Origin: Escherichia coli O157:H7
GTDB taxonomy: Bacteria > Pseudomonadota > Gammaproteobacteria > Enterobacterales > Enterobacteriaceae
Assembly (NCBI RefSeq): GCF_013167455.1
Contig: NZ_CP038328.1
Length of the DNA stretch: 64,000 nt
Strand: one strand, 5' to 3'
Shown here: positions 26,246 through 51,310 of the stretch, one piece after another
Numbering within the stretch: position 1 is the stretch's first letter
Layout: each line of letters opens with the position of its first letter
The notes under the pieces: generated by a model
Told to the model about the DNA's origin: nothing
The model's input: the letters and a program-made list of their open reading frames with translations, nothing else
The model's database searches: none
Position numbers and translations under genes: made by a program

Positions 26246-26641
26246 ATGGCGAAACCTTTTACACACGAACAGCGTGAAGAACTGAAGGCCCGAATTATCG
26301 GGCTGGTACGCAAAAATGAACGCATGACGATATCACAACTGGAGAGAGCGACGGGAGCAGGCTGGCATTCAGTCAGACGTTGCCTTGTGGATGTACTGGC
26401 TTGTGGCGATTTATACATGCCCGGTAAATACGGTGTTTTTACATCAGAACAGGTGTATCGCGTATGGCGTAAGGCAGCGGAGAAAGCAACCGACCAGACA
26501 TTGATTCGAAAGTTACCAGACGGAGAAATACGCCGCTACGACAGACAACAGAACATAATCTGTGGCGAGTGCCGGAAGAGTGAAGTTATGCTGCGTGTAC
26601 TGGCGTTCTATCAGGGCAATTTTCAGGAGGCGGTACTGTGA
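26246..26641 (+). CDS. Hypothetical phage protein
   Basis: 131-aa ORF with RBS; no recognisable motif except a CGEC pair. Confidence 0.4.
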   Translation: MAKPFTHEQREELKARIIGLVRKNERMTISQLERATGAGWHSVRRCLVDVLACGDLYMPGKYGVFTSEQVYRVWRKAAEKATDQTLIRKLPDGEIRRYDRQQNIICGECRKSEVMLRVLAFYQGNFQEAVL

Positions 26642-27282
26642 GTGAATTAGCTATCAGGCTTCAATTGTCGCTGGCATTCGCATCAAAGGAGAATGAGATG
26701 ACCACTTTTACAAAAGAGCAGTTAATCAGTCATGTTAGTGAAAATGTAAAGGCGATGAAATTTGCAGTAAAACAGACAGCATTCAAAAATTCTCTCGAGG
26801 CAATTGAGTTGGATTTAGCACTGGCCCTTGTTGCTCAGGCTTCGCTGGAAGCAGAGCCCGTGCTTTATATGAATCGATTTACCGGAAAGACATTCTCACT
26901 GGAAGAGCAACCCGGTGCTGATAAGGAACCGGAAATATACGTGCCGCTATATGCTGCCCCGCCAGACAGCGCCGCCATGCTTCAGGCTGGAAACTTTCGG
27001 GAAAAAAAGGGTTCGTCAACCAATAATTTTCGGGAAATCTCGGAAACGTCAACCAACTATCCGGTAACTCTGGATGATTGGATAAGCTGTAGTGAGCGAA
27101 TGCCGGATGATGGTCAGCACGTAATTATTTTATGTGATGGCGCATTCGTTCTTTATGCGCAATATCGAGACGGTGAGTTTTTTGATGTAGTCCGTAATGG
27201 TGATGAATTTTTCGAAACACAGAGCCGCAATGTAACCGACTGGATGCCGCTACCAGAACCGCCGCAGGAGGTGCGCCAATGA
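26638..27282 (+). CDS. Hypothetical phage protein with DUF551-like C-terminus
   Basis: C-terminal ...WISCSERMPDDGQHVIILCDG...WMPLPEPP resembles the DUF551 signature (from memory). Confidence 0.4.
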   Translation: MSELAIRLQLSLAFASKENEMTTFTKEQLISHVSENVKAMKFAVKQTAFKNSLEAIELDLALALVAQASLEAEPVLYMNRFTGKTFSLEEQPGADKEPEIYVPLYAAPPDSAAMLQAGNFREKKGSSTNNFREISETSTNYPVTLDDWISCSERMPDDGQHVIILCDGAFVLYAQYRDGEFFDVVRNGDEFFETQSRNVTDWMPLPEPPQEVRQ

Positions 27283-27532: not shown

Positions 27533-27639
27533 GGTAAAAACGGTTTGCGGTAAAGCGAGAGTTAAGTAGAATTGCTGCGGGTGCTTGAGGCTGTCTGCCT
27601 CGGGCATGCCACCGTAAGGCAGACAGAGAAAAGCCCCAG

Positions 27640-27710
27640 TTAACATTACGCGTCCTGCAAGACGCCTAACATTAATCTGAGGCCAATTTCATGCTAGACA
27701 CATGTAGGTT
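27640..27710 (-). ncRNA. sok: Predicted Sok-like antisense RNA region (position inferred, not mapped)
   Basis: Inferred from hok/sok architecture: antisense to the mok translation-initiation region; boundaries not determined. Confidence 0.25.
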
Positions 27711-27903
27711 AGCCTCTTACGCGCCGAAAGGCAAGGAGAAGCAGGCTATGAAGCAGCAAAAGGCGATGTTAATCGCCCTGATCGTCATCTGTATTACCGT
27801 CATAGTGACGGCACTGGTAACGAGGAAAGACCTCTGCGAGGTACGAATCCGAACCGGCCAGACGGAGGTCGCTGTCTTCACAGCTTACGAACCTGAGGAG
27901 TAA
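27691..27903 (+). CDS. mok: mok (modulator of killing) reading frame overlapping hok
   Basis: ORF MLDTCRLASYAPKGKEKQA... in the hok frame, starting upstream of hok as in hok/sok loci. Confidence 0.55.
   Translation: MLDTCRLASYAPKGKEKQAMKQQKAMLIALIVICITVIVTALVTRKDLCEVRIRTGQTEVAVFTAYEPEE
27748..27903 (+). CDS. hokD: Hok-family type I toxin (HokD/RelF-like)
   Basis: MKQQKAMLIALIVICITVIVTALVTRKDLCEVRIRTGQTEVAVFTAYEPEE, near-identical to recalled HokD. Confidence 0.85.
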   Translation: MKQQKAMLIALIVICITVIVTALVTRKDLCEVRIRTGQTEVAVFTAYEPEE

Positions 27904-47088: not shown

Positions 47089-47841
47089 ATGGCAACACCA
47101 AATCCCCTTGAGCCGGTAAAAGGTGCCGGTACCACTCTGTGGGTTTACAACGGCAAGGGTGATGCTTATGCAAACCCGTTGTCAGACGATGACTGGCAGC
47201 GACTGGCTAAGGTGAAGGATCTGACGCCGGGCGAGATGACGGCAGAACCCTACGATGATAACTACCTGGATGATGAAGACGCGGACTGGACCGCGACCGG
47301 GCAGGGGCAGAAGTCTGCAGGAGATACCAGTTTTACGCTGGCCTGGAAACCGGGAGAAGAAGGTCAGAAAGGGCTTATAGGCTGGTTTGAAAGCGGGGAT
47401 GTGCGGGCCTATAAAATCCGTTTCCCAAATGGCACGGTGGATGTGTTCCGTGGCTGGGTCAGCAGTATCGGTAAGGCCGTGACGGCGAAAGAAGTGATCA
47501 CCCGCACGGTGAAAGTCACTAACGTGGGCAAACCTTCCGTGGCGGAAGAACGCAGCGAAATTACGCCGGCCACTGCAATTAAGGTGACACCGACATCCGG
47601 TACGGTGGCAAAAGGGAAAACAACCACCCTGACTGTTTCTTTTGAGCCGGAAAGTGCAACCGACAAGACGTTCAGAGCGGTTTCCGCCGATCCGTCGAAA
47701 GCCACCATTAGTGTGAAAGATATGACAATTACGGTAAACGGCGTGGCGACAGGTAAGGTGCAGATCCCTGTGGTGAGCGGAAATGGTCAGTTCGCCGCAG
47801 TGGCTGAAGTCACCGTTACTGAAGCGGGCGCTGCAGGGTAA
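47089..47841 (+). CDS. V: Major tail tube protein gpV (C-terminal Ig-like domain)
   Basis: 250 aa lambda V-like, ...[32 protein letters not shown].... Confidence 0.9.
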
Positions 47842-47854
47842 ACGGAGGTAATAC

Positions 47855-48277
47855 ATGTTTCTGAAAACAGAACAATTTGAATATAACGGTGTGTCCGTCA
47901 CGCTTTCCGAATTGTCTGCGCTGCAGCGGTTTGATTATATAAAGTTTGTTTCAGACGCAGAACAACAGGAGACAACGAAGCATGATGTCGTGCACATTAA
48001 CCAGCGATATCTGGAAACGGCATCCCTGCTTGTGGCGATGTCGCTATGGCATTCCCATTCCCTCAAAGGCACTCTGGCCTCTCCGGAGACAGAGATGCAG
48101 CAGATCCGCCGTGAAGTGATGCTGGGATGGCCTGCTGATGCACTGAATCAGGCAACGAACCGGGTGCTTTATCTTTCAGGTATGCTGGATAACCGGCACG
48201 ATGCCGATCCTGAACAAACCGGTAAAGCAGAAGCGACTGAGTCGGTAACATCAAAAAAGCATTCGAAGGCGAGCTGA
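47855..48277 (+). CDS. G: Tail assembly chaperone gpG
   Basis: MFLKTEQFEYNGVSVTLSELSALQRF..., lambda G. Confidence 0.9.
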   Translation: MFLKTEQFEYNGVSVTLSELSALQRFDYIKFVSDAEQQETTKHDVVHINQRYLETASLLVAMSLWHSHSLKGTLASPETEMQQIRREVMLGWPADALNQATNRVLYLSGMLDNRHDADPEQTGKAEATESVTSKKHSKAS

Positions 48278-48717
48278 ACTTTGTCCTGAAACTGGCGCGA
48301 GAGATGGGGAGACCCGACTGGCGCGCCATGCTTGCCGGGATGACATCCACCGAATATGCCGACTGGCGACGTTTTTACTGCACGCATTATTTTCAGGATA
48401 CCCAACTGGACGCTCATTTTTCCGGGCTGATGTACGCCGTACTCAGCCTGTTTTTTGGCGATCCGGATATGCATCCGGCGGATTTCAGTCTGCTTGCTCC
48501 AGCGTGTGAGGAAGAGCAGACGGAGATGCCGGACGAGGAAGAAATGCTGATGCAGAAAGCGACAGGAGTTGCCGGAGGCGTCCGGTTCGGAGGGGACGGA
48601 GGGCGCGATATTTCACCTTCTGCGGATGTGGTGGATGTCAGCGAGGATGATGTTGCATTAATGATGGCTTCAGCGGGGATTTCCGGAGGTGTGAGATATG
48701 TCCCAGCCAGCGGGTGA
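48253..48717 (+). CDS. T: gpT segment of the G-T fusion, reached by -1 programmed frameshift at A AAA AAG (48253-48259)
   Basis: Heptamer A_AAA_AAG lies in the G zero frame 6 codons before the G stop; the -1 frame is open from there to 48717 (...MGRPDWRAMLAGMTSTEYADWRRFY...), lambda T-like. Confidence 0.8.
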   Translation, partial: KKAFEGELNFVLKLAREMGRPDWRAMLAGMTSTEYADWRRFYCTHYFQDTQLDAHFSGLMYAVLSLFFGDPDMHPADFSLLAPACEEEQTEMPDEEEMLMQKATGVAGGVRFGGDGGRDISPSADVVDVSEDDVALMMASAGISGGVRYVPASG

Positions 48718-51310
48718 TCTGGTTATTGATTTGAGTCTGGATGCGGCCCGGTTTGATGAACAGATGGCCCGGGTACGCCGTCATTTTTCCAGTCTGGAGG
48801 CGGATGCCAGAAAAACCGCCAGTACTGTTGAACAGGGGCTGAGCCGACAGGCGCTGGCGGCACAAAAAGCCGGGATATCAGTCGGACAGTATAAGGCTGC
48901 CATGCGCACACTGCCCGCACAGTTCACGGATATTGTCACTCAGCTTGCCGGTGGTCAGAATCCCTTCCTTATCATGCTGCAGCAGGGGGGGCAGATCAGC
49001 GATTCATTCGGTGGACCGCTCAGCCTGCTTACCCTGCTGAAGGAGGAACTTCTCGGGATCAGGGATGCCTCTGAATCATCAGAGGAGTCGCTGTCAGATA
49101 CGGCAAATGCACTGGCTGAAAATGCCCGGAATGCCGGTGAGCTGGGACGATTTATGTCGGTGGCCCGTGTGGCGGCAGGTGGCGGGGTTGCCGTACTGGC
49201 CGCGCTTGCTGCCGCCGCCTGGCAGGCAGAGCAGGCTGACCGGGCCTTATTGCGTTCACTGATCCTGACCGGAGGGGCGGCTGCCACCACAACGGCAGAA
49301 TTGTGGAAAATGGCCGGGGTGATCAGCGATGAAGCCGGTGGTGGTATCAGACAGGCGGCAGAAAATCTGGCCCGTCTGGCAGAAAGCGGGAAATATACCG
49401 CCGGGCAGCTACGGATCATGGGGGAAACCTCTCAGAGATGGCTGCAGACGGTGGGGGACGATGCCGGGAAGGTGGAAAAAGCCTTTGAAGGGATTGCAGC
49501 AGATCCGGTGAAGGCGCTGGCCTCCCTGAATCAGCAGTATAACTTCCTGAGCGTTTCCCAGTTACGCCATATTGATGAGCTTGAGCGCACGAAAGGTAAA
49601 CAGGTTGCGGTGACGGAGGCGATGTCCCTGTTTGCGGATGTCATGAATGCACGTCTGGAGCAACTTGATAAAGCGGCCACGCCGGTGGAAAAAATCTGGG
49701 ACGATGTTAAAACCTGGACTTCTGACGCATGGGCATGGATAGGTGATCATACACTGGGGGCACTCAGTCTGATCACTGACGTGGTGGCCGGAACCGTTGA
49801 ACAAGTGAAGCTGCTGCTTGTGCAGGGGGATCTGGCGCTGGCTGAATTTATTCAGTCAGCCTGGGAAACGACAAAGAATGTGCCCGGCGTTGGTGCGTTG
49901 TTTGGTGAACTGGCAGAAGAGAACCGCGTATTTATTGAGAAAACAAAACGCGATGAACTGGCGCTGAGAAAATCCATTGCGGAACGGGATGCGCGTATAC
50001 GCCAGGGGGAAATGGGGTACATCAACCGCTCGCGTGCAACAGGCGTCAGCAAAGGTCCGGGGCAGCAGGAAGCCGTCAGCCGTCTGGCTGAAGAGCTGAC
50101 AGGTAAAAAGCATACATCACCGAAAACGCGCTCTGCCGGGGAGAGGGAAGAGGAGCAGGCAAGAGAGGCTCTGCTTGCCCTTGAAGCTGAGCTCAGGACG
50201 CTGGAAAAACACAGCGGTGCGAATGAGAAAATCAGCCGGCAGCGCCGTGATTTATGGAAGGCGGAAAGTCAGTATGCGGTCCTGAAAGAGGCTGCCACGA
50301 AACGACAGTTATCTGAGCAGGAAAAATCCCTGCTGGCGCATAAAGACGAGACGCTGGAGTACAAACGCCAGCTGGCTGAGCTGGGCGACAAGGTTGAATA
50401 CCAGAAACGCCTGAATGAGCTGGCACAGCAGGCGGTGCGGTTTGAAGAGCAGCAGAGCGCGAAGCAGGCCGCCATCAGCGCAAAAGCCCGCGGTCTCACT
50501 GACCGTCAGGCGCAGCGGGAGTCTGAAGCGCAGCGTCTTCGGGACGTGTACGGTGATAATCCGGCTGCGCTGGCGAAGGCCACATCGGCACTGAAGAACA
50601 CCAGGTCTGCGGAGGAGCAGCTTCGTGGAAGCTGGATGGCCGGGCTGAAGTCCGGCTGGGGCGAGTGGGCGGAAAGTGCGACGGACAGTTTTTCGCAGGT
50701 TAAAAGTGCTGCCACGCAGACCTTTGACGGTATTGCACAGAATATGGCGGCGATGCTGACCGGTGCAGAGGCAGACTGGCGGGGATTCACCCGTTCGGTG
50801 CTGTCCATGATGACAGAAATCCTGCTTAAACAGGCCATGGTGGGCATTGTCGGGCGTATCGGCAGCGCCATTGGCGGTGCTTTCGGTGGTGGTGCATCTG
50901 CTTCCTCGGGGACGGCCATTCAGGCTGCGGCGGCGAACTTCCATTTCGCGACCGGAGGATTTACGGGGACGGGCGGCAAATATGAGCCTGCGGGGATAGT
51001 TCACCGCGGGGAGTTTGTTTTCACGAAAGAGGCAACCAGCCGGATAGGTGTGGGGAATCTTTACCGTCTGATGCGCGGCTATGCGGAAGGTGGTTATGTG
51101 GGTGGTGCCGGAAGTCCGGCGCAGATGCGGCGGGCGGAAGGTATTAATTTTAATCAGAACAATCACGTGGTGATTCAGAACGACGGCACCAACGGACAGG
51201 CGGGGCCGCAGCTGATGAAGGCGGTGTATGACATGGCCCGCAAGGGGGCGCAGGATGAGCTCCGGCTGCAGTTGCGTGATGGCGGTATGTTATCGGGGAG
51301 CGGGCGATGA
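48698..51310 (+). CDS. H: Tape measure protein gpH
   Basis: 870 aa; N- and C-terminal regions near-identical to lambda H, central region divergent. Confidence 0.9.
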   Translation: MSQPAGDLVIDLSLDAARFDEQMARVRRHFSSLEADARKTASTVEQGLSRQALAAQKAGISVGQYKAAMRTLPAQFTDIVTQLAGGQNPFLIMLQQGGQISDSFGGPLSLLTLLKEELLGIRDASESSEESLSDTANALAENARNAGELGRFMSVARVAAGGGVAVLAALAAAAWQAEQADRALLRSLILTGGAAATTTAELWKMAGVISDEAGGGIRQAAENLARLAESGKYTAGQLRIMGETSQRWLQTVGDDAGKVEKAFEGIAADPVKALASLNQQYNFLSVSQLRHIDELERTKGKQVAVTEAMSLFADVMNARLEQLDKAATPVEKIWDDVKTWTSDAWAWIGDHTLGALSLITDVVAGTVEQVKLLLVQGDLALAEFIQSAWETTKNVPGVGALFGELAEENRVFIEKTKRDELALRKSIAERDARIRQGEMGYINRSRATGVSKGPGQQEAVSRLAEELTGKKHTSPKTRSAGEREEEQAREALLALEAELRTLEKHSGANEKISRQRRDLWKAESQYAVLKEAATKRQLSEQEKSLLAHKDETLEYKRQLAELGDKVEYQKRLNELAQQAVRFEEQQSAKQAAISAKARGLTDRQAQRESEAQRLRDVYGDNPAALAKATSALKNTRSAEEQLRGSWMAGLKSGWGEWAESATDSFSQVKSAATQTFDGIAQNMAAMLTGAEADWRGFTRSVLSMMTEILLKQAMVGIVGRIGSAIGGAFGGGASASSGTAIQAAAANFHFATGGFTGTGGKYEPAGIVHRGEFVFTKEATSRIGVGNLYRLMRGYAEGGYVGGAGSPAQMRRAEGINFNQNNHVVIQNDGTNGQAGPQLMKAVYDMARKGAQDELRLQLRDGGMLSGSGR

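Follow-up and report, generated by a model that had tools for sequence, protein, structure and literature searches.

A probable programmed −1 frameshift site of the lambda G/GT type, with the slippery heptamer A AAA AAG, in an Escherichia coli O157:H7 prophage

Results

The G–T locus and its slippery heptamer

The stretch of DNA analyzed here (the window) comprises 64,000 nucleotides of the chromosome of Escherichia coli O157:H7 (contig NZ_CP038328.1, assembly GCF_013167455.1) in the ynfE/ynfF region, and contains, from about 17 kb to 62 kb, a lambdoid prophage whose tail genes are arranged in the order V-G-T-H, then M, L, K, I, and J, as in lambda, the whole series being open. The element in question is a slippery heptamer, A AAA AAG, near the 3′ end of gene G, where a −1 shift of the ribosome would lead into the T frame and produce the fusion protein GT. 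The features of the locus are as follows, with lengths of open reading frames (ORFs) in amino acids (aa).

47089–47841 (+), homologue of the major tail protein V, a 250-aa ORF and the upstream neighbor of G
47855–48277 (+), gene G, tail assembly chaperone, a 140-aa ORF in the 0 frame (RefSeq, 'phage tail assembly chaperone G')
48238–48240 (+), TGA, the last stop of the −1 frame translation 5′ of the slip site
48253–48259 (+), slippery heptamer A AAA AAG, with P-site AAA and A-site AAG, both read by tRNA-Lys(mnm5s2UUU)
48259–48717 (+), T segment in the −1 frame, 152 codons from GCA (48259–48261) to GGG (48712–48714), then TGA
48268–48336 (+), predicted two-tier stimulatory structure
48275–48277 (+), TGA stop codon of G, which shifted ribosomes would skip
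48304–48306 (+), internal ATG, the annotated 'start' of T, which is TTC (Phe) in the N15/phi80 class
48698–51310 (+), homologue of the tape measure protein H, an 870-aa ORF annotated 'phage tail tape measure protein', the start of which overlaps the end of T by 20 nt

The heptamer lies in the X_XXY_YYZ phase of G ((48253 − 47855) mod 3 = 2), being read as TC-A AAA AAG, and the C-terminus of G reads V T S K K H S K A S before the stop, with AAG as codon 135 of 140. After AAG, the 0 frame has five sense codons and then the stop (CAT TCG AAG GCG AGC TGA), and the −1 frame contains no stop from 48241 until the TGA at 48715–48717 (...VGNIKKAFEGELNFVLKLAREMGRPDW...VPASG, stop). Because of the TGA at 48238–48240 on one side and the G stop on the other, the window for a productive −1 shift is limited to 48241–48274 (34 nt), within which A AAA AAG is the sole canonical slippery motif. 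The predicted GT fusion consists of G residues 1–135 and 152 residues of T, 287 aa in all. G residues 1–123 match the Pfam family PF06894 (Phage_TAC_2, E = 4e-34), and residues 164–236 of the predicted fusion match PF06223 (Phage_tail_T, E = 3e-11). An earlier examination of the bare letters (the sequence-only reading) had placed AAAAAAG at 48253–48259 in the zero frame of G, six codons before the stop, and had described it as the G–T programmed −1 frameshift site, spelled A AAA AAG in place of lambda's G GGA AAG, with the −1 frame open through T. Sequence and phase agree with this description, the codon count is correct if AAG itself is counted, and re-translation of the −1 frame, named beforehand as the refutation test, failed to refute it; the V-G-T-H order and the presence of PF06894 and PF06223 on the two halves of the fusion bear out the assignment to a lambda-type module.

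The heptamer alone is not rare, AAAAAAG being present in 25 copies on both strands of the window versus 12.75 ± 3.44 in shuffled sequences. Only the copy at 48253 among the 25 is situated in slippery phase in a 141-codon ORF, with a 0-frame stop five codons on and 154 open codons in the −1 frame, and this unique geometry, together with the position homologous to the lambda and N15 sites described below, indicates that it is not a chance match. Another copy in slippery phase, at 27003–27009 (+), is located in ORF 26638–27282, which encodes a 214-aa DUF551 protein (Pfam, E = 2e-20); the −1 frame shuts there after 7 codons, so that a slip would only truncate the product, and this copy is probably incidental. 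No Rfam family was found over the slip site at 48253.

Distribution of the slip-site alleles

The slip site occupies the exact position of G GGA AAG in lambda (L003; labels of this form denote related loci) and of G GAA AAG in N15 (L002), and the N15 record annotates the latter as 'slippery sequence for -1 translational frameshift'. G GAA AAG is also found at the same position in phi80, mEp213, and a Klebsiella phage, and AAG is the sixth codon before TGA in all five phages and in the window alike. A survey of 101 unique sequence contexts taken from IMG/VR and GenBank phages divides into 11 contexts with AAAAAAG, 42 with GGGAAAG, 47 with GGAAAAG, and 1 with AGAAAAG (L358). The A_AAG tetramer is invariant in 101/101 contexts, with the P-site codon varying among AAA, GGA, and GAA, and the AAAAAAG heptamer is kept in all 11 unique contexts of its class. 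The G GAA AAG of the N15/phi80 class (L002, L083, L084, L085, and L290–L368) is not a canonical X_XXY_YYZ sequence.

The first two scans for related loci gave mostly near-identical E. coli prophages and thus overcounted AAAAAAG; the frequencies of the alleles are more fairly judged from an N15-first alignment and from a plain pattern scan. The less biased pattern scan of IMG/VR yielded GGGAAAG 99 times, AAAAAAG 20 times, and CACAAAG once; the contig with CACAAAG (one of L170–L289) shows the context GAGTCCCGG-CACAAAG-AT at the slip position and retains only the A_AAG tetramer. Of 5426 complete E. coli genomes, 632 carry the 60-nt context of the A type (AAAAAAG), which is found at 1370 places in total, with a maximum of five in one genome. 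At the level of the whole 863-nt G–T stretch, the window shows 100% identity with many O157:H7 genomes and 99.5–99.7% identity with Stx1a-converting phages. AAAAAAG was read directly in two phages, VT1-Sakai and ASU11, the latter induced with mitomycin; in the four Stx1a-converting phage records, the allele was judged by the 99.5–99.7% identity of G–T, the heptamers not being read one by one. A AAA AAG is, altogether, a common allele.

The relative L078 carries GGGAAAG fused to downstream sequence of the A type; the slip site therefore marks a mosaic junction, with the divergent C-terminus of G on one side and the highly conserved N-terminus of T on the other. In L114/L044 (IMGVR_UViG_2869970738_000006), a 31-nt deletion between short AAC(T) repeats, homologous to about 48250–48280, drops both the heptamer and the G stop; G then runs into the third frame, and the locus looks like a decayed copy.

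Predicted structure downstream and search for an upstream element

When the RNA is folded from 48260, a two-tier structure is predicted with a minimum free energy (MFE) of −34.4 kcal/mol (z = −2.9). Its outer stem pairs 48268–48274 (GGCGAGC) with 48330–48336 (GCUUGCC), leaving an 8-nt spacer after the heptamer, and encloses an inner stem (48293–48300 with 48321–48328) plus an apical hairpin. A like architecture is obtained independently for lambda, an L157-type relative, N15, and phi80 (z from −2.2 to −4.2), and the RNAalifold consensus gives the two-tier arrangement as well. In an alignment of 19 representative sequences, 97% of cells are paired, compared with 25–40% when the 3′ partner is slid by 1–3 columns, and one compensatory pair, G-C to A-U, combines a non-synonymous 5′ change with a synonymous 3′ change. 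The outer stem varies among the allele classes: it has 7 bp after an 8-nt spacer in the AAAAAAG class (mean MFE −33.8 kcal/mol), 8 bp in 35 of 42 unique contexts of the GGGAAAG (lambda) class (mean MFE −36.4 kcal/mol), and up to 10 bp after a 5-nt spacer in the GGAAAAG (N15) class (mean MFE −41.0 kcal/mol). From these predicted structures, the canonicity of the heptamer appears to be inversely related to stem length over the three classes, which is the only mildly new lead obtained here and is based on three lineages.

Conservation at synonymous sites near the stem gives no information, owing to the low overall divergence and the high conservation of the peptide. A fold of 48225–48320, including both upstream and downstream sequence, does not rise above shuffled controls (z = +1.1). 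There is no convincing Shine–Dalgarno (SD)-like element in the 23 nt upstream of the heptamer, the best duplex with the anti-SD sequence (−4.5 kcal/mol) being broken by an internal loop; a dnaX-like control gave −7.4 kcal/mol in the same comparison. Sharma et al. (2014; PMC4066793) likewise list SD 'N' and a predicted conserved hairpin for both of their tail-chaperone clusters.

Discussion

The site described above possesses all the testable defining features of a lambda-type G/GT frameshift, and we estimate at about 0.9 the probability that it is the programmed −1 ribosomal frameshift site of the G/GT chaperone pair of this O157:H7 lambdoid prophage. In the predicted mechanism, most ribosomes would read TCA AAA AAG CAT TCG AAG GCG AGC TGA and yield the 140-aa gpG, and a few per cent would slip back by one base, probably during translocation, whereupon the tRNA-Lys on AAA in the P site and the tRNA-Lys on AAG in the A site would re-pair with AAA AAA and reading would continue as GCA TTC GAA. 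The resulting 287-aa GT may act by analogy with the lambda protein, the G part binding the tape measure protein and the T part recruiting the major tail protein. The driving force would be that mnm5s2U34 pairs weakly with the G of AAG as compared with AAA, and the invariance of A_AAG across the family may also be attributed to this; the wobble base of tRNA-Lys pairs worse with AAG than with AAA, making A_AAG the shifty core of such sites (reviewed in PMC5009743 and PMC6787027). The conserved two-tier stem 8 nt downstream would probably lift the rate from the level of the bare heptamer into the per-cent range. In lambda, about 4% of ribosomes shift, producing G and GT at 30:1, a proportion of importance in tail assembly; the frequency of shifting is sensitive to the thiolation of U34 in tRNA-Lys, loss of which raises it.

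Several observations weigh against this reading. Bare AAAAAAG gives only about 0.3% frameshifting in reporters; a stimulator is therefore expected, and a rate in the per-cent range would depend on one that is here predicted. The covariation in favor of the stem is thin, amounting to one or two events (G-C to A-U in 16/84, and 3 bp added to the stem in the N15 class), and the stem region also encodes a highly conserved peptide. With a near-invariant peptide and so few covariation events, the two-tier stem is a likely, though unproven, stimulator. In addition, the PGAP annotation and the phage records give G and T as two ordinary coding sequences: G and a T starting from the internal ATG at 48304 are annotated by PGAP, in VT1-Sakai, and in ASU11, and likewise in PhiR12_2_star of the GGGAAAG class, the Stx1a records (99.5–99.7%) carrying no annotation under the match.

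The closest comparison is with lambda, whose G/GT frameshift was reportedly worked out by Levin, Hendrix and Casjens in 1993 and by Xu, Hendrix and Duda in 2004, 2013, and 2014. The two loci have in common the V-G-T-H order, the Pfam families, a 140-aa G, the position of the slip codon, an A-site A_AAG read by tRNA-Lys, a predicted two-tier downstream stem, and the overlap of T with the start of H. They differ in the P-site codon (GGA for Gly in lambda, AAA for Lys in the window), in the base 3′ of the heptamer (U versus C), in the length of the outer stem (8 versus 7 bp), and in the size of GT (279 versus 287 aa); the GT proteins are 57% identical, and the C-terminal third of G is divergent. 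N15 gp14/gp15, along with phi80 and mEp213, shares the homologous position, A_AAG, the N-terminus of T, and the inner stem, whereas its heptamer is non-canonical, the re-pairing of the P-site tRNA from GAA to GGA requiring a G.U pair in the middle, its predicted outer stem is longer and more stable, and no ATG is present at the position of the annotated T start of the window.

Two further systems use the same heptamer. ECs1801, the HK97-like chaperone of prophage Sp9 of O157 Sakai, resembles G of the window in the A AAA AAG sequence, the host, and the place between the major tail and tape measure genes, but it belongs to an unrelated 124-aa family and its heptamer directly precedes the stop (AAA AAG TAG). 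ECs1801 represents cluster A_AAA_AAG_25 of Sharma et al. (2014; PMC4066793), a 'true' frameshift that corresponds, according to their cross-table, to GeneTack cluster 10 (Antonov et al. 2013), two genes of which gave 6–7% frameshifting in E. coli. We considered whether cluster A_AAA_AAG_25 might be the G gene itself and rejected this, ECs1801 being unrelated; the cluster documents the kind of site, not this allele. The ECs1801 heptamer is found at 15367–15373 of L166, where RefSeq lists two genes, ECs_1801 and ECs_1802. The second system, dnaX, has the identical heptamer and two tRNA-Lys, and a stem 5–8 nt downstream, which in the window is a prediction, may be a further point in common. It differs in possessing an SD-like stimulator about 10 nt upstream, with none convincing in the window, and in its outcome, since 50–80% of ribosomes shift to give a shorter second product at about 1:1, whereas the product expected here is longer (287 versus 140 aa) and made by a few per cent of ribosomes. 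Among the features of the dnaX cassette, the window clearly shows only the heptamer. The designation as dnaX-type in the sequence-only reading is thus right as to the spelling of the heptamer; its suggestion that this spelling may set a different G:GT ratio is not supported, in view of the missing dnaX-like SD element and of the reporter data considered next.

A substantially different G:GT ratio from that of lambda as a consequence of the A AAA AAG spelling seems unlikely to us, although it fares better than the other alternatives. In its favor, with Lys in place of Gly at the P site, thiolation of U34 matters for both of the slipping tRNAs; the heptamer is followed by C instead of the U of lambda, a 3′ C being reported as generally more shift-prone (review PMC5009743); the outer stem comprises 7 bp after a spacer of 8 nt, as compared with mostly 8 bp in the lambda class, and the class means of MFE differ. 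The two genes of the unrelated chaperone cluster, which is linked to the A_AAA_AAG-bearing ECs1801, gave 6–7% as compared with about 4% in lambda, values that are of the same order. On the other hand, isogenic lacZ reporters in E. coli (Sharma et al. 2014; PMC4066793, Table S3) show nearly equal frameshifting for AAAAAAG and GGGAAAG, namely, 0.291% and 0.277% with no stimulator, 4.26% and 3.80% with the IS911 stimulators, and 39.0% and 43.0% with the IS3 pseudoknot, a gap of about 12% or less in three contexts and of changing sign. In the dnaX context, changes at position 1 (A1G and A1U) also leave frameshifting efficient (PMC6787027), and from these two sets of data the heptamer alone should not move the ratio much. 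The differences in context moreover oppose each other, the 3′ C being more shifty and the stem slightly shorter and more distant, and since tail assembly in lambda requires a balanced ratio, selection should hold the set-point. A broader conjecture, which we regard as slightly more doubtful still, is that the strength of the slip site and the downstream structure have been co-tuned across the G/T family to one G:GT set-point, with the A6 allele more sensitive to thiolation and provided with a small transcriptional or replicative route to an unchanged GT protein through an added A (+1A), resulting in a tail control dependent on the state of the host that lambda lacks. The part concerning thiolation follows from both slipping tRNAs being tRNA-Lys, by which the A6 allele would respond more to thiolation of the host tRNA-Lys.

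Another reading concerns the present use of the site rather than its nature: it may be a relic, inherited within a prophage that has ceased to make tails, and have no function now. O157 genomes hold several prophages of this kind, of which many are defective; at the same chromosomal site in PV15-279 (L369), the near-identical prophage contains two copies of IS1203 and frameshifted or truncated J, I, and tail fiber genes, and an IMG/VR relative has lost the slip site through the 31-nt deletion. Against this, the V-to-J series is open throughout in the window, and all the other unique contexts of the survey retain an intact heptamer and frame arrangement. We accordingly regard loss of function as improbable, at roughly one chance in ten. 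The copies of this prophage thus differ in integrity between strains, as seen from PV15-279 and the window. In PV15-279, PGAP does annotate the programmed frameshift of the IS1203 copies.

Production of GT mainly by transcriptional slippage, with RNA polymerase adding one A in the A6 run and the resulting A7 being read in frame as S-K-K-A, appears very improbable. Translation of the +1A transcript would give a GT protein identical to that from the frameshift, and mass spectrometry of the fusion can for this reason not separate the ribosomal from the transcriptional route. Runs of A are known slippage sites, and A7 is present at the slip site in three loci of two assemblies, so that the run is to some degree prone to insertion and deletion, be it in sequencing or in replication. 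Documented productive slippage, however, involves runs of A>7 or T>8 (PMC3711429), such as A9 in Thermus dnaX, compared with A6 here; the homologous sites of lambda (A3) and N15 (A4) cannot slip in transcription and yet keep the frame arrangement; and AAAAAAG is avoided in E. coli genes in a strongly phase-dependent manner (z = −10.1 in the slippery phase versus −3.2 and −0.65 in the other two; PMC4066793), which points to the ribosome. Transcriptional slippage would at most make a minor contribution. The three loci with A7, AAAAAAAG at position 1890 of each of L370, L371, and L372 (GCA_003742765.3 and GCA_008711395.1), have G and T in one ORF, and they are the sole source of the exact 287-aa and 252-aa fusions in the protein collection. 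The 287-aa entry was considered as a prior annotation of the frameshift and rejected as such, the contigs carrying the A7 indel. The A7 is probably a homopolymer error of long-read assemblies, neighboring genes being fragmented in one of the two, the other explanation being a real +1A mutant.

Least probable of all is that T is an independent gene starting from the ATG at 48304 and that the heptamer is incidental, even though PGAP and several phage records give a separate 137-aa 'tail assembly protein T' from this ATG. A purine-rich GAGAG directly touches the ATG, leaving no spacer and hence no spaced SD sequence. Codons 3–17 of the −1 frame, which separate the slip site from the ATG, show conservation at the protein level (F-E/D-G-E-L-x-F-V/A-L-K/R-L-A-R-E): in the 15 codons before the ATG, F, E, L, F, L, L, A, R, and E are nearly invariant and variation falls mostly on third positions. 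The Met codon itself is TTC in 48/101 unique relatives and in N15, phi80, and mEp213, which have no start at this position, and the frameshift is annotated explicitly in the N15 record and in one lambda record. The ATG at 48304 is therefore probably just Met-18 of the T segment, and the annotation of a separate T is a convention, not evidence.

As to the surroundings of the slip site, the V region is identical in E. coli O157:H7 PV15-279, where the protein is annotated 'phage tail protein' just 5′ of gpG. A cluster of three tRNAs (anticodons CAT, TCG, and TCT) is located at 30669–30918 (+), and none of the three is tRNA-Lys, so the phage does not provide the slipping tRNA. It is followed at 32002–33852 (+) by a gene for a 616-aa protein with DUF1737, a SASA esterase domain, and DUF6645; the tRNA cluster and this protein form the layout seen around the stx position of Stx phages, with no stx-sized ORF between them. 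Just 3′ of the tail fiber genes, three paralogous genes arranged in tandem, encoding type III secretion effectors of the NleG family (59764–60390, 60463–61092, and 61174–61815, all +; PF06416, E about 1e-44 to 1e-47) represent prophage cargo. Rfam matches above the gathering score inside the prophage are the sok antitoxin RNA at 27579–27753 (+; 116.9 bits) and two small RNAs (sRNAs), DicF at 20682–20733 (−; 76.7 bits) and STnc100 at 31692–31864 (+; 101.8 bits).

The G–T frameshift system, the heptamer, and its use in prophage tail-chaperone genes of the same organism are already published, although no publication that we found names this particular A AAA AAG allele of G–T, the key subscription papers lying outside that search. 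The site is a real and ordinary member of a textbook system, and its scientific weight is small, A AAA AAG being the best-known bacterial slippery heptamer and tail-chaperone genes with it having already been catalogued and measured. The practical use lies in annotation: GT is missing and T truncated in hundreds of E. coli genomes and in VT1-Sakai, which a join at 48259 would correct, and the A6 run is a place where long-read assemblies gain an A and thereby an artificial in-frame GT gene. For the family as a whole, AAAAAAG, GGGAAAG, and GGAAAAG constitute a natural series at one position, and this series may serve as a test bed for the contributions of the P-site codon and of stem length, refining rules that are already known.

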